64,000 bases of DNA from an uncultured Bacteroidales bacterium (GCA_963765005.1 CAVXUP010000002.1:279607-343606), one strand, 5' to 3'. Counted from the first letter of the stretch, positions 5,194 to 44,804 are shown. The notes: generated by a model from the sequence alone, not told the origin. Numbers and translations are program-made.

Positions 5194-5231
5194 GCCATGA
5201 GCCATGAGCCATGAGCCATGAGCCCTGAGCC
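5194..5231. repeat. Tandem 7-mer array (gccatga) x5
   Basis: Read directly: gccatga gccatga gccatga gccatga gccctga gcc. Lies in the spacer after the DUF1080 stop. Confidence 0.9.
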
Positions 5232-6050: not shown

Positions 6051-6133
6051 CCGCACCCCGCACCCTGCACCCCGCACCCCGCACCCTTCAACCTCTTCAA
6101 CCTCTTCAACTACTTCAACCTCTTCAACCCCTT
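6051..6133. repeat. Two abutting tandem arrays: (ccgcacc) x5 then (ttcaacctc) x5
   Basis: Read directly. The 9-mer array runs into the last codons of the GH43 ORF. It is preceded by a small hairpin gcctcc...ggaggc (6025-6050). Confidence 0.9.
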
Positions 6134-7249
6134 CATTTCCCACTCCTCCCGCCACCTTATAACCGGCATGTCTGCCTCCCATTCCAGAGGAAGCCATACA
6201 TGAGGACTGTCAGAAAGATTTTCAGGCGTCCATCTGTCGCCCATATAAACAAATAAATCCTTTTTTATGTTCAGGGCAAGTACGTTTGTACTCTGAGATC
6301 CGAAAGTGATTTTATTTTCCTCTTCTGTTCCCCTGCACGGATTTCCGGCTGCCTTCCACTCACCGGTCAGCTTATCAGCTACAGAGAGCCTGCCCGGATT
6401 GGGTTTCCATCCTGTAGTCCCTGATGTAAACATGAAGTACTTCCCTTTTGCATAGAAGATTGCAGGAGCTTCATTCGATTCACCTGGAAGAACACGGTAA
6501 TATCTGCCTGTAAAATCGAGGAAATCATCAGTAAGCTCAGAGAAGTGGAGAGTCATATTCTCCTCAGCGGAATGAATATGATAAGCTTTTCCATCCTTGT
6601 CGATATAAAGAGTCATATCGCGTGCCATCTGACCGCCGGCAAAATCTCTCCTCACAAACAATCCATCTCTTACTGCCTGTTTCCACTCCTCGCTCCAGCT
6701 CTTGAGATCTCCTTCCTTTACCTGAAGTTTTTTCTGTTCTTCTGTAAAATTCTGAGGCCAGGTGCCGGCATTCGGGCGGAGACTCCGGATATATTTATAA
6801 GGACCTGTTATTTTATCGCTTACTGCTACTCCGGTCATTGCTGCCTTGTAGCCCTGTCCCTTCAGTTCATGATGAAACCACATTACAAATTTGCCGGTCT
6901 TGCTGTTAAAGATCACCTTTGGCCGTTCAATTACGCAACCTGGCTGAAGGAGACTTGCGGTATCATTTATTACCCTTAGGGAAAGGCCTTCATTTTTCCA
7001 GTTTATAAGATCATTTGACGAATAGCAGCCCACACCGTATTTTGTTTTGTCCTGGACTCCCCTTGGAAGCCTGCTCTCTCCAAACCAGTAATAGATACCC
7101 TTATGCTCAATTATTGCTCCTCCGTGGGCATTGATATGATTGCCATCGGTATCAGGCCATACCTGACCAGGCTTTATCGTTTTGCTTTCCTGTGCCTTGA
7201 CTCCAAGCGACAGGATTATAAGCAGAATCAGGGATATCTTTTTCTTCAT
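6110..7249 (-). CDS. Glycoside hydrolase family 43 (GH43_24-like, exo-beta-1,3-galactanase-type)
   Basis: Start at the internal Met with signal peptide (MKKKISLILLIILSLGVKAQ). DGNHINAHGGAIIEHKGIYYWFGE motif resembles GH43_24. The last ~8 codons are read out of the 9-mer repeat array. Confidence 0.6.
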   Translation of the reverse strand: MKKKISLILLIILSLGVKAQESKTIKPGQVWPDTDGNHINAHGGAIIEHKGIYYWFGESRLPRGVQDKTKYGVGCYSSNDLINWKNEGLSLRVINDTASLLQPGCVIERPKVIFNSKTGKFVMWFHHELKGQGYKAAMTGVAVSDKITGPYKYIRSLRPNAGTWPQNFTEEQKKLQVKEGDLKSWSEEWKQAVRDGLFVRRDFAGGQMARDMTLYIDKDGKAYHIHSAEENMTLHFSELTDDFLDFTGRYYRVLPGESNEAPAIFYAKGKYFMFTSGTTGWKPNPGRLSVADKLTGEWKAAGNPCRGTEEENKITFGSQSTNVLALNIKKDLFVYMGDRWTPENLSDSPHVWLPLEWEADMPVIRWREEWEMKGLKRLK

Positions 7250-8128: not shown

Positions 8129-8248
8129 GAGGGAGAGGGGGAGATTGGGAGAAAGGGAGAATGGGAGAGGGGGAGAATGGGAGAATGGGAGAATGGGAGA
8201 ATGGGAGAGGGGGAGACAAAAAGATAAAAGATAAAAGATAAAAGATAA
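8126..8248. repeat. Approximately 120-nt near-pure polypurine spacer: GGGAGA-type 8-mer array (gagaatgg etc.) then (gataaaa) x4
   Basis: Fills the whole spacer from the stop at 8126 to the ATG at 8250. Contains the 16-mer agggagagggggagat (8130-8145), which also occurs twice at 10920-10951 on the other strand. Confidence 0.9.
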
Positions 8249-8249
8249 G

Positions 8250-9482
8250 ATGAAAATCAAGATCATATACTTAGTTGCTGTAAGCATCTTGGGCTTGTCA
8301 ATTACTTCATTGACAGAGAGCTCAGCTCAGCTGATACCATCGGATAAAACCATTGAGGCAATGGTTCTTGCCAATAAATACTTCATGGAAAAATGGCCTG
8401 ATGTCGGGAAGACTATTATCACCGAAAGGGAAAGGCCGAGTAATATCTGGACACGTGGTGTCTACTATGAAGGTCTTATGGCTCTGTACAAGATCAGTCC
8501 AAATCCGGCTTATCTCGACTATACGGTCAGCTGGGGGCAATTCCATAAATGGGGTCTGAGGGATGGCATTACAACCCGGAACGGAGACAATCAGTGTTGC
8601 GGACAGACCTATATAGATATTTATATGCTCGACAGGTACAAAGAGGAGAGGATAAAGGACATAAAGGCATGTATCGACAACATGCTGGCCACTGATAAGA
8701 TCGACGACTGGAACTGGATTGATGCCTTGCAGATGGCTATGCCTGTATATGCACGGCTTGGTACCATATACAGGGATAAAAGGTACTTCGACAGGATGAA
8801 TGAAATGTATATGTATACCAAACTCAGCCATGGCACTAATGGTTTATACAATCCTGAGGATCATCTCTGGTGGCGCGATAAGGATTTTGTGCCGCCATAT
8901 AAGGAGCCAAATGGTGAGAATTGTTACTGGTCGAGAGGCAATGGATGGGTTGTTGCAGCCCTGGTAAGGACTCTTGAGTTTCTTCCCGAAAAGAACAAGT
9001 ACCGTGATGAGTATGTAAAAACGCTGAAAGAGATGCTGGAGGCACTTGTTCCCCTGCAGAGGAGTGACGGTTACTGGAATGTAAGCCTTAAGGATCCTTC
9101 AAACTTCGGAGGGAAAGAGCTGACAGGCACAGCTCTGTTTGTTTATGGGATGGCATGGGGAATCAACCAGGGGATCATAAGCAAAAAAGATTATCTTCCG
9201 GTTGTCACCAAAGCCTGGAATGCCATGGTTGCAGAATCAGTTCATCCTAACGGCTTTCTGGGTTATGTGCAGGGCACAGGGAAGGAGCCAAAAGACAGCC
9301 AGCCTGTAGGTTATGATATTGTTCCGAATTTTGAAGATTTCGGTCTTGGTTGTTTTCTGCTTGCCGGCTCCGAAGTATATAAGCTGAGCAAGTCTCTTGA
9401 GCCAAAACCGGAAAAAGGCGGTAAAGGCAGTAAAGGCAGTAAAGGCGATAAAGGGGAGAAAGGCGATAAAGGCGATAAATAG
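8250..9482 (+). CDS. GH105 (GH88-related) unsaturated rhamnogalacturonyl hydrolase
   Basis: YWSRGNGWVVAALVRTLEFLP and WWRDKDF motifs typical of YteR/YesR-type GH105. The C-terminal KGGKGSKGSKGDKGEKGDKGDK tail is translated 9-mer repeat. Confidence 0.8.
   Translation: MKIKIIYLVAVSILGLSITSLTESSAQLIPSDKTIEAMVLANKYFMEKWPDVGKTIITERERPSNIWTRGVYYEGLMALYKISPNPAYLDYTVSWGQFHKWGLRDGITTRNGDNQCCGQTYIDIYMLDRYKEERIKDIKACIDNMLATDKIDDWNWIDALQMAMPVYARLGTIYRDKRYFDRMNEMYMYTKLSHGTNGLYNPEDHLWWRDKDFVPPYKEPNGENCYWSRGNGWVVAALVRTLEFLPEKNKYRDEYVKTLKEMLEALVPLQRSDGYWNVSLKDPSNFGGKELTGTALFVYGMAWGINQGIISKKDYLPVVTKAWNAMVAESVHPNGFLGYVQGTGKEPKDSQPVGYDIVPNFEDFGLGCFLLAGSEVYKLSKSLEPKPEKGGKGSKGSKGDKGEKGDKGDK
9414..9476. repeat. 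Tandem 9-mer array (aaaggcNNt) x7 forming the GH105 C-terminal tail
   Basis: aaaggcggt aaaggcagt aaaggcagt aaaggcgat aaaggggag aaaggcgat aaaggcgat. Confidence 0.9.
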
Positions 9483-10876: not shown

Positions 10877-10878
10877 TA

Positions 10879-10953
10879 GGCATCAGGCAGCAGGCAGCAG
10901 GCAGCAGGCAGTATGTTCTATCTCCCCCTCTCCCTATCTCCCCCTCTCCCTTT
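10879..10953. repeat. (ggcagca) x5 array followed by 2x 16-mer atctccccctctccct
   Basis: Read directly. Lies in the spacer between convergent genes. The 16-mer is the reverse complement of 8130-8145. Confidence 0.9.
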
Positions 10954-29867: not shown

Positions 29868-29983
29868 TTAACCGCAAAGGACGCAAAGTCTAGACGCAAA
29901 GTTCGCAAAGAAAGAATTAACATTAGTATTCTTTGAGTTCTTTGCGTTCTTTGCGTTTCTTCTCTTAGAGTCCTTTGCGGTTT
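29868..29983. repeat. 116-nt word-array hairpin: (cgcaaag) x4 arm and (ctttgcg) x3 arm, same outer stem as 28922-28962
   Basis: ttaaccgcaaagg acgcaaag...acgcaaag ttcgcaaag | ...ttctttgcg ttctttgcg...cctttgcggttt. Confidence 0.8.
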
Positions 29984-37504: not shown

Positions 37505-37510
37505 TCTTAT

Positions 37511-37581
37511 AATCTGCGATAATCTGCGTTATCTGCGGGAAATATTTTCTCCCGCAGATCTCGCAGAAATTCGCAGAAATT
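37511..37581. repeat. Word-array hairpin: (atctgcg) x3 arm and (cgcaga) x3 arm
   Basis: aatctgcga taatctgcg ttatctgcggga aatatttt ctcccgcagat ctcgcagaa attcgcagaaatt. Lies between convergent NIPSNAP and trpB2 genes. Confidence 0.8.
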
Positions 37582-37597: not shown

Positions 37598-38959
37598 TTA
37601 AGATGGGAAGGTAATTTTGGATATTGCATCATCTACTTCGGCTGTTGTCATCTGATGATCCGGAAGGTTATTCTCAAAGTATTTCTCATAAGCCGAGATA
37701 TCAAAATGACCATGGCCGCTGAGGTTGAAAAGTATTGTTTTTGACACTCCTTCAATATCAGCCTTTCTTGCTTCATCCATAGCACCTGCAATTGCATATG
37801 TCGATTCAGGAGCCGGAAGAATGCCTTCATTCCTGGCAAAAAGGACTCCTGCCTCAAAGCACTCTCTCTGCAGTTTTGCTTTTGCTTCAACAAGTCCGTC
37901 TTTAAGAAGCTGACTTACAATCACACCTGCACCATGGTAGCGCAAGCCTCCGGCATGTATCTTTTCCGGGATGAAATTATGCCCGAGAGTGTACATCGGA
38001 AGCAAAGGAGTCATCCCGGCCGAATCGCCAAAGTCGTACATGAATTTGCCCTTTGTTAGTTTCGGACATGAAGCAGGTTCAACAGCCACGAGCCTGATAT
38101 CCTTTTTATTAAGCAGTTTCTCGCGCAGGAACGGAAAAGCAATTCCTGAAAAGTTCGAACCTCCGCCGAAACAGCCGACAACTACATCGGGATAATCGCC
38201 AGCTTTCTCCATCTGAATCAAAGCTTCCTGTCCAATTATAGTCTGGTGAAGGCTGACATGATTCAGGACGCTTCCCAGCGAATATTTAGTGTATGGATCC
38301 TGTCCGGCCACTTCCATTGCTTCCGAAATTGCAATACCAAGACTTCCGGGGGAGTCCGGATCGAGTTCAAGAACTTTCCTGCCGTATTCTGTCATTGTGC
38401 TCGGAGAGGCCAGAACTTTGGCATTATAAGTATTCATAAGGAGTTTCCGGCCGGGTTTATTATCATAGCTTACCCTGACCATAAAGACCAGAAGCTCAAT
38501 TCCGAAATAGTTGCAGGCGAAACTCATCGCGCTGCCCCATTGTCCGGCACCTGTTTCAGTTGTGATCCTCCTTACGCCCTCCTGTTTATTGTAATAGGCC
38601 TGAGGAATTGCTGTATTTGCTTTATGTGAGCCTGAATAATTGCCTCCTTCATACTTGTAGTAAATCTTGCTCTTTGTGCCAAGTGCTCTTTCGAGATTTA
38701 AAGCTCTGAAAAGAGGAGAGGGGCGATAAGTCCTGTACAGATCAACAACTTCTTCAGGTATATCGATATATCTCTCTGTAGATACCTCCTGTTTGATGAG
38801 TTCCATCGGAAAGACAGCCGCAAGGTCCTGTGGCCCGATAGGCTGCCGTGTAACCGGGTGAAGAGGTGGCATAGGCTTGTTTGGCATATCAGCCAGGAGG
38901 TTATACCATTGCCTCGGCATTTCATTTTCGCTTAAAATAATTTTTCTGAGCTTTTCCAT
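37598..38959 (-). CDS. trpB: TrpB-like PLP enzyme (tryptophan synthase beta chain type 2, TrpB2)
   Basis: 453 aa, long TrpB2-type N-terminus (PRQWYN..ADMP..P.PP); PLP-lysine context GSHKANTA; GGGSNF loop; no trpA nearby. Confidence 0.85.
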   Translation of the reverse strand: MEKLRKIILSENEMPRQWYNLLADMPNKPMPPLHPVTRQPIGPQDLAAVFPMELIKQEVSTERYIDIPEEVVDLYRTYRPSPLFRALNLERALGTKSKIYYKYEGGNYSGSHKANTAIPQAYYNKQEGVRRITTETGAGQWGSAMSFACNYFGIELLVFMVRVSYDNKPGRKLLMNTYNAKVLASPSTMTEYGRKVLELDPDSPGSLGIAISEAMEVAGQDPYTKYSLGSVLNHVSLHQTIIGQEALIQMEKAGDYPDVVVGCFGGGSNFSGIAFPFLREKLLNKKDIRLVAVEPASCPKLTKGKFMYDFGDSAGMTPLLPMYTLGHNFIPEKIHAGGLRYHGAGVIVSQLLKDGLVEAKAKLQRECFEAGVLFARNEGILPAPESTYAIAGAMDEARKADIEGVSKTILFNLSGHGHFDISAYEKYFENNLPDHQMTTAEVDDAISKITFPS

Positions 38960-38986
38960 TGTTTTCGTATTTATTGGTTAGTAATT

Positions 38987-39025
38987 TTTTAAAATAAAAA
39001 AGGCATGCTGTGATCAGCATGCCTT
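38987..39025 (-). terminator. Intrinsic terminator (attenuator) between the Trp leader and trpB2
   Basis: Perfect 11-bp stem aaggcatgctg / cagcatgcctt (39000-39010 and 39015-39025) with a 4-nt loop. On the minus strand it is followed by UUUUUUAUUUU. It ends about 40 nt upstream of the trpB2 ATG. Confidence 0.7.
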
Positions 39026-39059
39026 CTTAAGTAAGTATTATTATAATGTTACATAATGG

Positions 39060-39122
39060 CTAAATCACAGCTTCGTTTGATGTGCTGCGCCAAGACCAGT
39101 TATGTGACATTTCTATTCTCAT
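39060..39122 (-). CDS. Candidate Trp leader peptide MRIEMSHNWSWRSTSNEAVI (or MSHNWSWRSTSNEAVI from the second ATG)
   Basis: Hand-translated minus-strand mini-ORF with two Trp codons (tgg tct tgg). It lies between a promoter-like motif and the terminator hairpin upstream of trpB2. Confidence 0.55.
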   Translation of the reverse strand: MRIEMSHNWSWRSTSNEAVI

Positions 39123-39127
39123 GAGGG

Positions 39128-39157
39128 CAAATATATGGAAAAATTTATATTGTCAAA
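39128..39157 (-). promoter_or_regulatory. Bacteroidota-type promoter candidate (TTTG-N18-TATATTTG) for the Trp leader
   Basis: The minus strand reads gTTTGacaatataaatttttccaTATATTTGccctcATG. This matches the published -33 TTTG / -7 TAnnTTTG consensus. Confidence 0.35.
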
Positions 39158-39208
39158 CAAAATCGGGAATATTTTAATTAATTTTTATAAAACACTTAAT
39201 ATTTTAAA

Positions 39209-39330
39209 GTCCGAAGACCGAAGACCGGAGACCGGAGTTTTCATTCAGGACATCACCCTGGCCCCAAAGGGGGAATTTGAAGAGCTTCTAACTTCGGACT
39301 TCGGTCTTCCGTCTTCGGTCTTCTGTCTTC
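39209..39330. repeat. Word-array hairpin: (ccgaaga/ccggaga) x4 arm, ~55-nt loop, (tcttcgg-type) x5 arm
   Basis: Read directly. Starts 12 nt after the aroA stop. Shares the 17-mer ccgaagaccgaagaccg with 42745-42811. Confidence 0.85.
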
Positions 39331-39341
39331 TTATTCGTGAA

Positions 39342-40580
39342 TCACCGCCCCAGCGACCTCATATCGTCAAAGAATCCCGGATACGATTTTGCAACGCAGT
39401 GCGAATCCCTGATATGGACTTTTCCGCTTGCCCCCAGGGCAGCAACCGCTGTTGCCATGGCTATACGATGATCTTCATGCGATTCAACATGAGCACCAGA
39501 AGGCTTGCCGCCAGTCACATACATTACATCGCCGTTTACTTCAACCTTTATATTCATCTTACCGAACTCATTCATAAGTGTCGCAGCCCTGTCGCTCTCT
39601 TTATGGGCAAGTCGCGATACACCAGTTATTGAGGATACTCCATTGCAATAAGCGGCAAGTGCGACAAGAGGCGGGAAGAGGTCGGGTGACTCGGTTGCAT
39701 CAAATTCAAAGGCCTTCAGGTCAGATTTTTTAACATAAATATACTCCTTGCCAGCATCTATTGAAGCCCCTGCACTAAGCAGGGCCTTTAAAATTCCCTT
39801 GTCGCTCTGATTGCTTTCAGAGTGCAGTCTTTCTATTTTCAGATCACCGTTTATTGCTCCGGCCACCAGTAAGAAAGCCGCTCCGCTCCAGTCTCCTTCA
39901 ACAGTATATTCGCAGGGGATATATTTTTGTTTTCCGGGAATAATAAACCTGTCATAACCGTCTCTCTCAATTTTGATTCCAAACGAAGCCAGTATACCGA
40001 GCGTCATGTCGATATAGGGTTTGCTTTTAAGGTTAATGACTTTTACATCTGAATCCTTTGGAGCAACAGGCAGTGCCATAAGAAGTCCTGTAAGAAGCTG
40101 GCTGCTGACCGACCCGTCGATTTCACATTTCCCTCCCTTAAGCGGCCCTTTTATCATCAGAGGTAAAAAACCGTCTGTGGATGTGCATTTTACTCCAAAC
40201 TGTTTAAGTGCATCGCCGATCATGTTCATCGGCCTTTTTCTGAGCGAGTTGGCGCCGGTTATTGTTATCTCTGCAGGATATAGTGCTGCAATAGGAGAGA
40301 ACATGCGGATTGCAAGACCAGATTCGCCGCAATTCAGCTTCGATTCTTTCAGTATGCCAGTCCCCCTGATTTTAAGCTCATGGGCTTCAGGTTTGATAAT
40401 GGCTCCCAGCCCTACAGCTATACTCATGGCAGCAACGGAGTCATCACAGTATGATGGATTATGGATTATTGTCTCTCCGTCGGCAAGCAATGCAGCTGCT
40501 ATTGCTCTTTGTGTCATGCTTTTTGATGTAGGGGCTTTGATTGTCCCTTTTATTTGTGACGGCTCTGCAATTCGTTCCAT
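39342..40580 (-). CDS. aroA: 3-phosphoshikimate 1-carboxyvinyltransferase (EPSP synthase)
   Basis: 412 aa; KSMTQRA, LNCGESGLAIR, RLAHKESDR, DHRIAMA motifs. Confidence 0.9.
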   Translation of the reverse strand: MERIAEPSQIKGTIKAPTSKSMTQRAIAAALLADGETIIHNPSYCDDSVAAMSIAVGLGAIIKPEAHELKIRGTGILKESKLNCGESGLAIRMFSPIAALYPAEITITGANSLRKRPMNMIGDALKQFGVKCTSTDGFLPLMIKGPLKGGKCEIDGSVSSQLLTGLLMALPVAPKDSDVKVINLKSKPYIDMTLGILASFGIKIERDGYDRFIIPGKQKYIPCEYTVEGDWSGAAFLLVAGAINGDLKIERLHSESNQSDKGILKALLSAGASIDAGKEYIYVKKSDLKAFEFDATESPDLFPPLVALAAYCNGVSSITGVSRLAHKESDRAATLMNEFGKMNIKVEVNGDVMYVTGGKPSGAHVESHEDHRIAMATAVAALGASGKVHIRDSHCVAKSYPGFFDDMRSLGR

Positions 40581-40595
40581 AATCTTCTGACGGTT

Positions 40596-41711
40596 TTATT
40601 TTTTCCTGACTTTCTCGTTCACTTCTTCGTTCATGACCTTCATCTGGTGGTTGATTGACTCCTGGTGAATTGCCTTGAAGATTGTATCAATCAGTTCGGC
40701 ACTAAGGCCTTTAGCCTCTCCTCTTACAATCACCTTTTTTATTATTTCATCCCAGCGGGTGCTCTGCAAGATAGTGATATTATTTTCCTTTTTATAACGT
40801 CCGATTGTTTCTGCTACTTTCATTCTCTGTTCCATCAGATCGAGCAGGTGATCGTCGTAAATGTCGATCTGCTGCCGTAATTCTCCAAGTACATCAAGCA
40901 ATCTGGGATCGTTTGTATTCGCATTTCTGTAAATGAGCCTGCTCAGGAGCTCCTTCAGATCATTGGGTGTCAGCTGCTGCGCAGAGTCGCTGAGTGCTTT
41001 TGCAGGGTTGATATGCGACTCTATCATAAGTCCGTCGAAGTTGAGATCCATGGCCTTTTGTGAGATCTCGTGCAGGTATTGCCTTGCACCGGCAATATGA
41101 CTTGGATCGCAGATCATCGGCAGATCAGGGATACGCCGGCGCAATTCAATAGGGAGCTGCCAGTTGGGCTGGTTCCTGTATAGTGTTTTTTCGTACGAGG
41201 AGAAGCCGCGATGTATAGCGCCGATTCGTGTTATACCTGCTTTCGCTATACGTTCAATGGCACCCATCCAGAGTTCAATGTCAGGATTAATCGGATTCTT
41301 AACAAGAACCATAACATCGACCCCGTTAAGCGCATCTGAGATCTCCTGTACTGTGAAAGGATTAACAGATGTTCTGGCGCCTATCCACAAAAGGTCAATC
41401 CCATATTTGAGAGCTTCATAGACGTGCTTCTCGTTCGCAACCTCTGTACCAACAAGCAATCCTGTCTCCTGCTTTACACGCCTGAGCCATTTCAGCCCTT
41501 CGCTTCCGACTCCCTCGAATGAGTTTGGACGGGTCCGGGGCTTCCAGATCCCTGCGCGAAAGATGCTTATTTGATCTATGCTTGCCAGCTGACGGGCTGT
41601 CTCCATAACCTGTTCTTCCGTCTCAGCACTGCAAGGACCTGAGATTAAAAATGGTTTGCCTTTATAGCCTCTCCAGTCCTTAATAAGTGAATTCTCAAGA
41701 TTTAATACCAT
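40596..41711 (-). CDS. Bifunctional 3-deoxy-7-phosphoheptulonate (DAHP) synthase (type I-beta) / chorismate mutase
   Basis: N-terminal KDO8PS-like DAHPS (ISGPCSAE, FRAGIWKPRT, ICDPSH) and a C-terminal AroQ-type CM helix region (LRQQIDIYDDHLLDLMEQRMKVAETIGRYK). Confidence 0.85.
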   Translation of the reverse strand: MVLNLENSLIKDWRGYKGKPFLISGPCSAETEEQVMETARQLASIDQISIFRAGIWKPRTRPNSFEGVGSEGLKWLRRVKQETGLLVGTEVANEKHVYEALKYGIDLLWIGARTSVNPFTVQEISDALNGVDVMVLVKNPINPDIELWMGAIERIAKAGITRIGAIHRGFSSYEKTLYRNQPNWQLPIELRRRIPDLPMICDPSHIAGARQYLHEISQKAMDLNFDGLMIESHINPAKALSDSAQQLTPNDLKELLSRLIYRNANTNDPRLLDVLGELRQQIDIYDDHLLDLMEQRMKVAETIGRYKKENNITILQSTRWDEIIKKVIVRGEAKGLSAELIDTIFKAIHQESINHQMKVMNEEVNEKVRKK

Positions 41712-41744
41712 TATTTTAAATGTTAGTCATTTATAATTTTAGAA

Positions 41745-41869
41745 ACAAGTTTGGAGTGAGCTAGAGTTTGGAGTGAGCTAGAGTTATAAGAAATCTACTA
41801 ATATATTAACTCTAGGCACTCCAAACTCCAAACTCCAAACTTGTTTTTAACTCTAGCTCACTCCAAACT
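41745..41869. repeat. Word-array hairpin from gtttggagtgagctagag (x2) and its complement plus (ctccaaa) x3
   Basis: Read directly. Fills the tyrA to DAHPS/CM spacer. Confidence 0.85.
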
Positions 41870-41870
41870 T

Positions 41871-42716
41871 TTAGTTTAGAATCTTCCTGATCTTATTCGC
41901 CTCCTCCATTAGCTCTTTCAGCCCTTCCATATCTCTTTCAACAATCATTTTTCTGAAAAGGTTCATCTTATCAATATATGTATCCATTACTTCAATTATA
42001 TATTCTGCATTCTCGACAAAGATTGGCGCCCATGTATCGCCGTTACTCTTTGCAAGCCTTACTGTGCTTTCGAAACCACCTCCGGCAAGTGTAAGGATGT
42101 TTTGTTCCTCATGCTCTTTGTCAAGTACACTTAAAGCAAGTGAGAAAGATGTTATATGTGAAATATGTGAAATATACGCAACGTGGATATCGTGATCGCT
42201 CGAGTTCATATACACCTTTTGCATATTCAGCAGGTCAAGCATCTTTTCAACTTTTTCAAGCGCATCGCTGTCGCTGAGCTCTCTGTCGCAGACAATTGCT
42301 CTTTTGTAATCAAAGAGATGTCCTATTGCAGCAAGCGGACCTGAGTATTCCGTACCAGCCATCGGGTGGACTGCAACATATCGGCCCCTGGCTTTATTGC
42401 CCTCTGATGCTTCGGCAATGCTGACCTTTGTTGAGCCCATATCTGTTACAACCTTGCCGGTGCCGGCTATCCTGTCGAGAATGACGGGAAGCAGTCTGCA
42501 GTTTGTATTAACAGGGGCAGAGAGGATAATGAGATCGCTGTTGTCAACTGCATTCTCAAGAGAGTCAATCTCGTCTGCCAGTCCGCAGAGCTTTGCGATG
42601 TTCTGGTGATGGAGGTTTGAGTCAACTCCGATAATGCGGTCTGTAAATCCACGCCTGCGCAGGTCAACAGCCAGCGACCCTCCAATAAGTCCTATACCTA
42701 TTATTGCTATAGTCAT
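41871..42716 (-). CDS. tyrA: Prephenate dehydrogenase
   Basis: N-terminal Rossmann IAIIGIGLIGGSLA; HPMAG motif. Confidence 0.85.
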   Translation of the reverse strand: MTIAIIGIGLIGGSLAVDLRRRGFTDRIIGVDSNLHHQNIAKLCGLADEIDSLENAVDNSDLIILSAPVNTNCRLLPVILDRIAGTGKVVTDMGSTKVSIAEASEGNKARGRYVAVHPMAGTEYSGPLAAIGHLFDYKRAIVCDRELSDSDALEKVEKMLDLLNMQKVYMNSSDHDIHVAYISHISHITSFSLALSVLDKEHEEQNILTLAGGGFESTVRLAKSNGDTWAPIFVENAEYIIEVMDTYIDKMNLFRKMIVERDMEGLKELMEEANKIRKILN

Positions 42717-42744
42717 TTTATTTATGAATGTAATTAGTATTAAT

Positions 42745-42811
42745 GACCGAAGACCGAAGACCGAAGTCCGAAGTTATTTTTACTTCGGTCTCCCGTCTTC
42801 CGTCTTCTGTC
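42745..42811. repeat. Word-array hairpin (gaccgaag) x4 / (cttcggtc-type) x4; right arm overlaps the aminotransferase 3-prime end
   Basis: gaccgaag accgaag accgaag tccgaag ttattttt acttcgg tctcccg tcttccg tcttctg tc. Confidence 0.85.
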
Positions 42812-43976
42812 TTTTTCCTAAATATTCTTCGAGCCTTGCTTTTGCTTCAAAAAGCCGCTCTTCGTTAGCGCAAAGCGAGATCCTGATATATCTCGCTCCG
42901 TTTTTTCCGAAAATAAATCCGGGTGTTATGAATACGTGCGTTGCCTGCAGGATATCCTCCACAAAACTCTCGCAATCAGTAGTTTTGTCAGTGATCCTTC
43001 CCCATACGAACAAACCTGTCTGTGAAGGGTCAAATCTGCACTCCAGCAGTTCCATAATCTCTTCGACTGTTTTACGTCGTCTGCGATAAACCTCGTTGAC
43101 CGTATCGTACCACGATTCAGGGTTTGCCAGGGCTTCAGCGGCGGCAAGCTGCATGGGAAGAAACATCCCTGAATCCATATTGCTTTTTACCTTAAGAATA
43201 TTCTTAATAAACCCGCTGTCGCCGGCAACCATTCCTACTCTCCATCCTGCCATATTATGCGATTTGCTCAAAGAATTCAGCTCAAGTGCTGTTTCCTTCG
43301 CACCATCAGTCGCAAGCAGGCTGAGATGGTTTTTATTCAGGATGAAGCTATATGGATTATCATTACACAGAAGTATGCCATGTTTTTGGGCAAAAGCGAC
43401 CAGTCTTGTAAAGAGCTTTTGTGAACCGTTTGTACCTGAAGGCATATGAGGATAGTTCACCCACATGAGCTTCACCCTCGAAAGGTCACTGTTCTCAAGT
43501 GCACCAAGGTCGGGAAGCCATCCTCCTTCTTCATTAAGGTCATAGGTCCTTGCCACCCCGCCGACAAGGTTCGTAACCGAAGAATATGTCGGATACCCCG
43601 GATCAGGAATGAGCACCTCATCGCCCGGATTGACATAAGCCATGCTGATGTGCATAATGCCCTCCTTGCTGCCCATAAGGGGAAGGATCTCTTTGTCAGG
43701 GTCAAGTTCAACATTGAAATATTTGCGGTACCAATCTGCAAAAGCCTTTCTCAGGACCGGAGCCCCTGTATAGCTCTGGTAGCCATGAGTCGTCTTTTTC
43801 CGTGCCTCTTCTGCGAGCGTGGCAACAGTGCTTTCCGAAGGAGCCTGATCGGGACTTCCGATACCAAGGTTGATGATATCCGCGCCAGACCTGCGCATCA
43901 TCTCTATCTGCGCTAATTTCCGTGAGAAGTAGTATTCCTCTACACTGTTTGTGCGTTCTGCCGGTTTAACTTTCAT
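42780..43976 (-). CDS. Class I/II PLP-dependent aminotransferase (aromatic/aspartate type)
   Basis: NSLSKSHNMAGWRVG (PLP-Lys motif) and NPGDEVLIPDPGYP. The last ~10 codons (KRQKTEDGRPK) lie inside the ccgaaga hairpin arm. Confidence 0.85.
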   Translation of the reverse strand: MKVKPAERTNSVEEYYFSRKLAQIEMMRRSGADIINLGIGSPDQAPSESTVATLAEEARKKTTHGYQSYTGAPVLRKAFADWYRKYFNVELDPDKEILPLMGSKEGIMHISMAYVNPGDEVLIPDPGYPTYSSVTNLVGGVARTYDLNEEGGWLPDLGALENSDLSRVKLMWVNYPHMPSGTNGSQKLFTRLVAFAQKHGILLCNDNPYSFILNKNHLSLLATDGAKETALELNSLSKSHNMAGWRVGMVAGDSGFIKNILKVKSNMDSGMFLPMQLAAAEALANPESWYDTVNEVYRRRRKTVEEIMELLECRFDPSQTGLFVWGRITDKTTDCESFVEDILQATHVFITPGFIFGKNGARYIRISLCANEERLFEAKARLEEYLGKRQKTEDGRPK

Positions 43977-44029
43977 ACAGCATGTCTCCTTTCAGATAAA
44001 CTCCGAGAATCTCGAGGTTTGTAGTATAG

Positions 44030-44804
44030 TTACTTAATGCCCGTCTTATCACGTCTGCGTTTGTGTTCTTTGGGAAGCTCAAGATCGAGATAAAACATAT
44101 ATTCCCACTCCCCGTTCAGTCGCGGGACAGATTGGATTTTTGTAAGGTTTATATCGAGTTCTGCTATCTTGACAAGCACCCTGGCCAGAGATCCGGGTTT
44201 GTGGCCGGTTGAGAAGCAGACTGATACCTTATTGCCCTTGCGATTCCCCATTTCCTCCTTGCCGACAACCATAAAGCGGGTGTAATTCTGCTTGTAGGTT
44301 TCTATACCTTCTGCAAGGATCTCAAGTCCGTATATTTCAGCAGAAATCGCTGAAGCAATTGCAGCGACTCCCTTCTCCCTGGTTTCGCTTATTTCCCTTG
44401 CACTTCCGGCTGTATCATCACTTTCGATAAGGGTTATGCCCGGAAACTGGTTAAGGTATGTCATGCACTGAGCTATGGCTATGGGATGCGATCTTATCTT
44501 ATTTATCTCTGATATGCTCTGTCCGGGCAGAGCCATCAGGTTCTGCCTTATCCGGAGATTGTGCTCACCGAGGATCTTCATACCTGATTCCCTGTAGCAG
44601 AGTATAGTTATACAGTATACTTCCTGAACGGGCATTTTCTATTGCCATTACTGCAAAATCAGCATCACCTGCCTTCAGAGTATTAAGTGTAAGATCAAAT
44701 GTCGAACATGGAACGATATCAATCTCATCATAGCTGAAATACTGCCTTGCAGCAACTTCATGAAAACATCCCTTTTCTCCCTGAATAGCAATTTTCATCT
44801 TCAA
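44030..44804 (-). pseudogene. pheA: Prephenate dehydratase, one +1 frameshift at a G3 run
   Basis: ORFs 44565-44804 and 44030-44635. Joining AIENARSGSILYNYTLLQ to ESGMKILGEH requires removing one G (plus-strand ccc 44590-44592). C-terminal ACT domain present. Confidence 0.8.

Follow-up and report, generated by a model that had tools for sequence, protein, structure and literature searches.

Tandem heptamer repeats are known from several bacterial groups, including the short tandemly repeated repetitive (STRR) sequences of cyanobacteria, the GGGAATC repeats of Xanthomonas and the GGGACCG repeats of Geobacter, and the S23p/four-helix-bundle (FHB) proteins are known from rRNA intervening sequences (IVSs), from the structure 2gsc and for a distant kinship to Avd. 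A heptamer repeat excess has been reported for many bacteria (PMC4692102, PMC4679880), and Rehm et al. (2015) found GGGAATC at ∼185 sites per Xanthomonas genome, with 70-75 inverted pairs and a bias toward stop codons, and named no protein partner (PMC4692102). In the IVS of Coxiella 23S rRNA, an S23p open reading frame (ORF) is enclosed by a 28-bp stem that contains GACAGAT heptamers, two or three of them according to strain, and RNase III cuts within this stem (PMC4990558). Also on record, but unexplained, are FHB genes that lie wedged within cas operons (PMC3936711). Here we analyzed three hairpins with arms made of tandem words (elements 1-3) in the aromatic amino-acid (aro) operon of an uncultured Bacteroidales bacterium, located in a 64,000-nt stretch (the window; C2:279607-343606) of its 4.38-Mb, 12-contig genome. 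Our favored reading, to which we assign a probability of roughly 0.6, is that these hairpins are gene-less members of two genome-wide word families, each of which also has an IVS-like cassette carrying an FHB gene.

The elements are a gene-less variant of a kind already known piecemeal, from inverted pairs of heptamer repeats and from hairpin cassettes of the IVS type. They resemble the 23S rRNA IVSs of Coxiella burnetii and Leptospira, long suspected to be selfish or once mobile, in that terminal inverted repeats with tandem heptamers pair into a long stem and in that a protein of the same family (S23p/PF05635) is encoded within the gene-carrying form. Unlike those IVSs, which lie in helix 25 or helix 45, the window elements have no ORF, lie between protein genes of the aro operon and belong to several word families with dozens of copies per genome; RNase III cleavage has been shown for the Coxiella stem and is only predicted for the window elements. 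The elements likewise resemble the GGGAATC repeats of Xanthomonas and the GGGGA(C/T)T repeats of Nostoc, which are tandem heptamers of about four units, mostly intergenic and often in inverted pairs, lie 0-50 bp from or overlapping stop codons as the elements here do, differ in copy number among species while keeping the repeat type, and are transcribed (PMC4692102). Those repeats were described as G-quadruplex formers, whereas the words GAAGACC and AGTTTGG of the present elements contain no run of three Gs.

Hairpins with tandem-word arms in the aro operon

The original prediction had placed hairpins with tandem-word arms in three spacers of the aro gene cluster, and all three were recovered there and folded strongly. 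Folding was evaluated on the mRNA (minus) strand against 200 shuffles, none of which folded as well as element 1, 2 or 3. Element 1 (42742..42814, minus strand), identified by inverted-repeat search, folding and Tandem Repeats Finder (TRF), is a GAAGACN heptamer hairpin whose 33-nt arms (42742-42774 and 42782-42814) are 82% complementary and separated by a 7-nt loop; in the mRNA, positions 42814-42782 form the 5' arm, 42781-42775 the loop and 42774-42742 the 3' arm. Its fold of -40.3 kcal/mol compares with -17.0 +/- 2.9 for the shuffles (z -8.0), its arms were detected by TRF as arrays of 4.1 copies (42745-42773) and 4.4 copies (42783-42813), and its end lies 25 nt before the start codon (42716) of the prephenate dehydrogenase (PDH) gene.

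Element 2 (41747..41870, minus strand), identified by inverted repeats and folding, is a member of an AGTTTGG / AGTGMCTAGAGTTA family. It contains the 17-mer AGTTTGGAGTGAGCTAG twice (41748-41781), an exact complement of the 17-mer region at 41849-41870 (22 nt, 100%) and CTCCAAA-type heptamers at 41817-41841. Read as mRNA, it consists of an extra 5' half-arm (41870-41849), a main 5' arm (41844-41806) of (AGTTTGG)3 followed by AGTGCCTAGAGTTAA, a loop (41805-41790) and a 3' arm (41789-41747) that contains the two 17-mers, and it folds at -59.2 kcal/mol (z -8.3). The element begins right after the PDH stop codon (41871-41873) and ends 35 nt before the start codon (41711) of the DAHP synthase-chorismate mutase (DAHPS) gene.

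Element 3 (39207..39330, minus strand), identified by inverted repeat and folding, is a second GAAGACN heptamer hairpin with a 50-nt interior. Its arms (39207-39239 and 39290-39322/39330) are 33-41 nt long and 85% complementary, with the 5' arm at 39330-39290 and the 3' arm at 39239-39207 in the mRNA sense; it folds at -53.0 kcal/mol, with a z-score of -4.4 on the mRNA strand and -5.3 on the plus strand, and begins 11 nt past the AroA stop codon (39342-39344). Genome matching showed the interior (39240..39289, minus strand) to hold a ∼42-nt dispersed module, GCTCTTCAAATTCCCCCTTTGAAGGGGGCTAGGGGGATGT, in degenerate form; the module consists of a C-run and a G-run with a short loop between them, then 3 nt and a second G-run. 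Seven of the 10 matched genome loci were true copies of this module, most of them in or beside GAAGACN-type arrays. Besides the window, copies were seen at C1:649334, C1:196029, C6:202635, C6:463170, C9:231206 and C12:98460, and variants were seen in both orientations in the aro spacers of numerous relatives (L014, L024, L025, L030, L053, L059, L069 and L077). No ORF was found between the arms of elements 1, 2 and 3, whose interiors are 7, 16 and 50 nt long, and an Rfam search of 38900-43100 at E <= 1 returned only chance matches to microRNA precursors far below threshold.

Cyanobacterial STRR heptamer arrays with small dispersed repeats nested in them were reportedly described by Mazel et al. 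in 1990 and Elhai et al. in 2008. The present elements are similar in that tandem heptamers fill intergenic space and hold small nested modules, here the C-run/G-run module of element 3, but they belong to another phylum and use other words, and to our knowledge neither the hairpin arrangement nor an FHB partner is part of the STRR descriptions. A second nested module, made of two small hairpins (GCTCGGCGAAGTTTGTAACTTCGCCG ... AAGCGAAGTTGCAAACTTCGCTTAGC), was observed at C10:105142-105325, C2:439292-439511, C9:310458-310589 and C1:416908-417084 inside hairpins whose arms are arrays of the 8-mers GGCGCAAC / GCCGTTGC; these loci are composite elements with outer arrays and inner conserved modules.

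The repeat word had been written with eight letters (gaccgaag) for element 1, which does not hold: the unit of elements 1 and 3 is 7 nt, GACCGAA being equal to GAAGACC. In the mRNA of both elements, a 5' arm of GAAGACG/A faces a 3' arm of (GGUCUUC)n, and this slight difference between the arm words leaves a purine-purine mismatch at about every seventh pair. The two elements do share the exact 17-mer CCGAAGACCGAAGACCG (window positions 39211 and 42747) as had been noticed, but it is found 24 times in the genome and is therefore a family marker rather than a special tie between two aro spacers. The predicted array-encoded tail of the aminotransferase (AT) was borne out, in that the protein ends in ...EEYLGKRQKTEDGRPK* with its last codons inside element 1. 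Translation and C-terminal alignment placed the last 10 codons (RQKTEDGRPK) and the TAA at 42780..42812 on the minus strand, with the TAA itself (42780-42782) at the top of the 5' arm where the loop starts. Most of the 44 aligned AT homologues end ∼8-10 residues earlier and some have array-encoded tails too, which identifies RQKTEDGRPK as an array-encoded extension.

Word families and four-helix-bundle cassettes

The hairpins are not confined to the aro cluster, as a genome-wide inventory showed. TRF detected 362 period-7 and 286 period-8 arrays in the whole genome, among which a small set of words recurs, the canonical words being AAACTCC (30 arrays), AAAATTTG (28), AAGACCG (26), AAGACGG (18), AAGACCGC (18), AAACCCG (17) and AACGGCGC (16). 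Array clusters were intergenic in 275 of 379 cases, though intergenic DNA makes up ∼11% of the genome. Inverted partners were sought by local alignment and then by folding all spacers; local alignment found a partner for only ∼17% of the arrays, and a strict ungapped search misses most partners because the arms mismatch every 7 nt. When every spacer was folded and a stem was kept only if it had 18 or more pairs and its arms were periodic, 100 loci were obtained, of which 71 fold well on both strands, while arm shuffles yielded almost none. Other word arrays were observed within the window at 5194-5231, 6086-6135, 8131-8248, 9414-9479, 10878-10951, 29929-29957 and 37509-37537; they include GGGAGAAT (10.8 copies), AAAGGCGAT (7.3 copies), CTTCAACCT (5.6 copies) and AGGCAGC (4.9 copies) beside a C-rich partner.

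Both word families of the aro hairpins are dispersed in this genome. GAAGACN arrays occur at 43 loci, and the element-2 family has ∼20 full-length copies, up to 95% identical over 95 nt, plus solo half-elements. The consensus of the latter family is (AGTTTGG)n AGTGMCTAGAGTTA, a variable loop and then TAACTCTAGCTCACTCCAAACTCTAGCTCACTCCAAACTT. Its copies have an identical asymmetric arm design with variable loops, and an asymmetry common to all of them cannot come from separate slippage at each site.

Six FHB genes were found in the genome (PF05635, 23S_rRNA_IVP; TIGR02436, 'four helix bundle protein'), the family of the 23S rRNA intervening-sequence proteins, which are distantly Avd-like. Five of them are enclosed by inverted arrays and the sixth, which is truncated, is flanked on one side, with a different word for each gene. 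The gene at C5:115990-116343 is flanked by GAAGACC, the word of elements 1 and 3, and that at C1:83757-84116 by AGTTTGG with AGTGACTAGAGTT, as in element 2; the others are flanked by GGCTGTAGA (C8:52825-53187), GGCGCAAC (C6:148602-149024), AAAATTTG (C10:7122-7478) and, on the 3' side only, AAGACCGC (the truncated gene at C8:85161-85451). These flank words belong to the most abundant TRF word families of the genome, and elements 1-3 match both the word and the composite arm of cassettes in the same genome. A gene-carrying cassette is ∼0.5 kb long and encodes the FHB protein only, and gene-less hairpins and arrays outnumber the cassettes by ∼20-40 to 1.

The same arrangement was found in relatives. 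Among 30 FHB genes in eight related genomes, 24 were enclosed by inverted arrays, compared with 0 of 30 in a reversed-sequence control, and in four relatives the aro-spacer word also flanks an FHB gene in the respective genome: AACCTGR in G043, GTAGTAAG in G044, AGGTTA in G046 and GAAGTCC in G045, where it flanks the only FHB gene and is present in 54 copies in the aro spacer. In the AT-PDH spacer of the metagenome-assembled genome (MAG) MFD02416.bin.2.233 (L003:1559-1976), six copies of GGAAGTC were seen to precede a perfect 54-copy TCGGACT array of 378 nt, and the sole FHB gene of that genome (L099) is flanked by the same word; this array is either a real expansion or an effect of long-read assembly.

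A tree built from 36 FHB proteins required 21 changes of word class against a possible minimum of 18, whereas 500 label shuffles averaged 27.1 changes and none gave fewer than 25. Where FHB proteins with the same word fell into well-supported clades, they were 67-85% identical across genomes, compared with 16-39% among the paralogues within this genome. No pair of the four GAAGNCN cassettes (0 of 6) shares a homologous flanking ORF, and their DNA homology stops at the outer array edges; the 9-mer cassette, unlike these, has a conserved genomic position. Comparison of proteins and flanks thus shows that, in the genomes sampled, an FHB lineage and its word stay paired across species and unrelated contexts.

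The association extends to other phyla. In Xanthomonas campestris, the C5 FHB protein has a match in XCC0516 (PDB 2gsc; E = 1.6e-13), and 80 loci from more than 15 phyla were fetched with the aligned XCC0516 fragment. In the 77 usable loci, inverted arrays around the gene were found in 42 compared with 1 in the control; of these 42 loci, 34 have a period of 7 and 39 have the G-rich arm first. In Xanthomonas vasicola and a Pseudoxanthomonas MAG, the FHB gene lies between the accB stop codon and the accC start codon, inside GGGAATC-type arms; the XCC0516 homologue was seen at L123:560-1400 in the former and in L124 in the latter. This locus ties a solved protein of unassigned function (2gsc) to the published Xanthomonas 'quadruplex' repeats. 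Literature searches for FHB genes with inverted arrays yielded only the Coxiella IVS paper and the reports of FHB genes in cas operons, and the pairing of an FHB lineage with a word appears to be undescribed in the literature searched.

These data bear on whether the arrays arise purely locally, by slippage and template switching that act independently at each site, with FHB genes gaining arrays simply as small intergenic genes. Such an origin would suit the wide range of copy numbers (3 to 54), the separate amplification of sub-words in the arms of element 2 (CTCCAAA three times against the 17-mer twice), the small fraction of arrays with an inverted partner and the heptamer excess in many bacteria. 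It leaves unexplained, however, ∼20 copies with the same composite asymmetric arms, a small vocabulary common to a genus, the fidelity of FHB lineages to their words in unrelated contexts and the cross-phylum excess around FHB genes, and we consider it improbable.

The association of dispersed palindromes with a protein gene also invites comparison with repetitive extragenic palindromic (REP) sequences, their REPIN pairs and REP-associated tyrosine transposases (RAYTs). As in REPIN-RAYT systems, dispersed extragenic palindromes of several families coexist in one genome, each family being tied to one protein gene flanked by the family's own repeats (PMC3116915). The partner here is a non-enzymatic four-helix bundle instead of a Y1 transposase, and the arms, unlike those of REPs and REPINs, are tandem arrays of 7-9-nt words. 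Mobilization of the hairpins as true REPs or REPINs by a RAYT (Y1 HUH) transposase could draw on four Y1_Tnp-family hits in the genome and on the fact that REPINs are likewise dispersed inverted pairs near gene ends (PMC3116915), but the hairpin repeats beside the Y1 genes are different ones (GGCGCGGATTTGCAATCCGTGCC, a 51-bp unit) and no word arrays lie there, which makes this origin hardly credible. The RAYT-like Y1 genes (C2:192067-192411, C3:211233-211565, C5:240928-241188 and C7:78590-78799) each have REP-like hairpins of their own, such as the 51-bp tandem unit, so that a REP/RAYT system coexists with the word-array system. A GGCGCGGATTT-type hairpin was also seen in an aro spacer of a relative (L057). 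A link to a reverse transcriptase, following an Avd-like logic, was considered and rejected, as the single RVT_1 hit in the genome lies away from every FHB gene.

Placement at gene ends and in related operons

The well-folding hairpins typically lie at stop codons. The 39 in co-oriented spacers are a median of 2 nt from the upstream stop and 47 nt from the next start, with the stop closer in 34 of them (p = 2.4e-6), and all 20 in convergent spacers are within 21 nt of a stop. The leader left between hairpin and next start is A/T-rich and usually tens of nt long. Within the cassette at C5 and those of L117 and L122 (alignment A1, columns ∼730-790), a short G-rich array was seen to start at the FHB stop codon (TAAGTCGGAAGTCGG...) and to precede the C-rich 3' arm, repeating the rule that an array begins at a stop codon. 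A 46:9 excess of the 'G-rich arm first' type among the hairpins was considered as a polarity relative to transcription and rejected, since the arm order of an inverted repeat is identical whichever strand is read and the excess therefore describes the palindrome type only. The true signal relative to genes is that the distances to stop and start are unequal.

The operon itself, annotated from ORFs and Pfam, occupies 39342..44635 on the minus strand and encodes, in order, prephenate dehydratase (PDT, 44635-44030), AT (43976-42780), PDH (42716-41871), DAHPS (41711-40596) and the EPSP synthase AroA (40580-39342). The closest AroA relatives are 73% identical and come from fen, peat and lake MAGs, and the aro gene order is kept in at least 64 of 80 related loci. 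A Bacteroidetes-type -7 motif (TAnnTTTG) was found on the minus strand of 38900-44800 only at 39135, outside the operon, and elements 1 and 2 are accordingly placed within one transcription unit, as far as the sequence tells.

That the elements are terminators or attenuators of the aro operon seems very unlikely. Long G+C-containing stems do follow stop codons, and element 3 comes after the last gene of the operon, but, in agreement with the original prediction, none of the three is followed by a U-tract and the terminator scan called none of them. Classical terminators exist in this organism: a canonical terminator-like hairpin of 14 pairs followed by UUUUUUAUUUU was called by the same scan at 38997..39028 on the minus strand; element 3 lies 180 nt upstream of it, and the next gene follows after 38 nt. 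Moreover, stopping after genes 2 and 3 would cut off the later genes, for which there is no internal promoter motif. The sole -7 motif (TATATTTG, 39135) was seen to precede this U-tract hairpin, with the start of a PALP-family gene at 38959, and the hairpin may serve that gene as leader or attenuator instead of, or besides, being the aro operon terminator.

We then compared the junctions in the 80 related loci, taking spacers of less than 50 nt as empty and those of 50 nt or more as filled. The AT-PDH junction has a median spacer of 36 nt and was empty in 43 of 71 loci and filled in 24; the values were 15 nt, 39 of 75 and 36 for PDH-DAHPS, where empty spacers are typically 11-15 nt long, and 14 nt, 64 of 80 and 15 for DAHPS-AroA. 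Filled spacers contain arrays and hairpins of many different words, including the element-2 word family at the same junction in about a dozen relatives and AACCAGG, ACCTGCA, AATCCGC, CTTTGTG, AACCTGA and AGGTTA in others. The expected variation in arm length was confirmed, with ∼3 to 54 unit copies at the same junction across relatives. These spacers were judged by fold z-scores, the inverted-repeat score being too strict and its control noisy, and, among the filled spacers that underwent folding, z <= -2 was reached by 21 of 33 at PDH-DAHPS, 8 of 20 at AT-PDH and 7 of 14 at DAHPS-AroA. As about half of the relatives have a bare short spacer, the hairpins are facultative inserts rather than conserved operon signals. 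Judged by the conservation criterion of the original prediction, this weakens a conserved operon function, although the kind of structure is itself kept; the elements at the aro junctions are recurrent, but dispensable and fast-changing.

E. coli REPs stabilize the mRNA upstream of them, and those located ∼15 nt or less from a stop codon lower the translation of the upstream gene. The window hairpins could similarly be REP-like RNA elements that benefit the host, either by protecting the upstream cistron from 3' exonucleases or by tuning how strongly the aro genes are expressed relative to each other, by way of processing or of ribosomes that stall at the stop codon. Very stable stems directly after stop codons, the location of elements 1 and 2 inside an operon without internal promoters or terminators, and the refilling of the same junctions in relatives, including the well-folding filled PDH-DAHPS spacers, are all in line with such a role. 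Against it, the same junctions are bare in about half of the relatives, the words differ from genome to genome, and hairpins are as frequent per divergent spacer (12 of 577) as per co-oriented spacer (39 of 2604). Arm mismatches on the mRNA strand showed no preference for G-U over A-C (52 vs 44), and the element-2 family occurs either way relative to genes (6 vs 8), so that nothing here points to selection on the sense RNA. Purine-purine mismatches exceed pyrimidine-pyrimidine ones by 81 to 45, yet this corresponds to only 24 loci against 12. Since selfish spread combined with tolerated positions accounts for the same facts, we regard a host-beneficial RNA role as unlikely. The original suggestion that the hairpins are REP-like and not simple terminators stands in part: they are not terminators and do form dispersed palindromic families at gene ends, but they are not true REPs.

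Proposed spread, tolerance and significance

Under the favored reading, that the aro hairpins are gene-less relatives of FHB cassettes, the elements would spread by copying, after which their arms would grow and shrink through slippage. The gene-less elements would relate to the cassettes as MITEs (miniature inverted-repeat transposable elements) do to insertion sequences, or REPINs to RAYTs, although the gene-carrying form, unlike that of a MITE, has no transposase and encodes only an FHB protein. The FHB pentamer would probably recognize tandem copies of its own word. Elements would last only where genes stay undamaged, which in tight operons would be directly at a stop codon, where an insert would neither break a gene nor cover the A/T-rich leader of the next one.

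Within the aro operon, the elements would be transcribed as part of the polycistron and would fold into imperfect stems of ∼30-45 pairs. An RNase III gene is present in the genome, and by analogy with the Coxiella IVS (PMC4990558), these stems are likely substrates of the enzyme, whose cleavage would part the cistrons so that the upstream mRNA would keep a stem at its 3' end, which would probably act as a barrier to 3' exonucleases. No sign that the host depends on the stems was seen in the sequence comparisons, and we regard such RNA processing as a side effect that the host would tolerate and not as a conserved function.

Several observations weigh against this gene-less-cassette reading. 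We know of no catalytic activity of FHB proteins and of no enzyme for movement of the elements, and no such movement has been observed. Unlike ordinary MITEs, the element-2 copies share their arms but not their loops, and although MITE-like inverted ends are present, an unsystematic inspection by eye of ∼20 copies and of filled versus empty sites revealed no target-site duplication. In two relatives with array hairpins in their aro spacers (G042 and G047), whose genome completeness is not established, no FHB gene was found, and in this genome the abundant words GTTTCGG, GGTGCGG and GGGAGAAT have none. The word classes e2, GTCTTGCG and GGGAGAAN, whose rows are long or truncated, are not clades on the FHB tree. 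Finally, fidelity between word and protein would also be expected if FHB genes, instead of bringing the arms along, inserted by homing into loops of a single hairpin family.

A more specific form of the proposal, which we put forward only tentatively, is that FHB pentamers specifically read tandem copies of their own heptamer, that the gene and its inverted arrays constitute a minimal autonomous element, and that the gene-less hairpins, including those of this aro operon, and solo arrays are made or spread in trans. Heptamer arrays and S23p/FHB proteins are two long-standing puzzles, each described apart, and this genome joins them family by family, with each FHB lineage keeping its own word across species amid dozens of gene-less copies at operon stop codons. 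For annotation, such elements add repeat-encoded tails to proteins, mimic regulatory hairpins and may pass for operon-specific signals. If true, the word-reader system would explain the heptamer excess of bacteria, including the cyanobacterial STRR and Xanthomonas GGGAATC repeats, and would also explain rRNA intervening sequences and the FHB genes wedged into operons.

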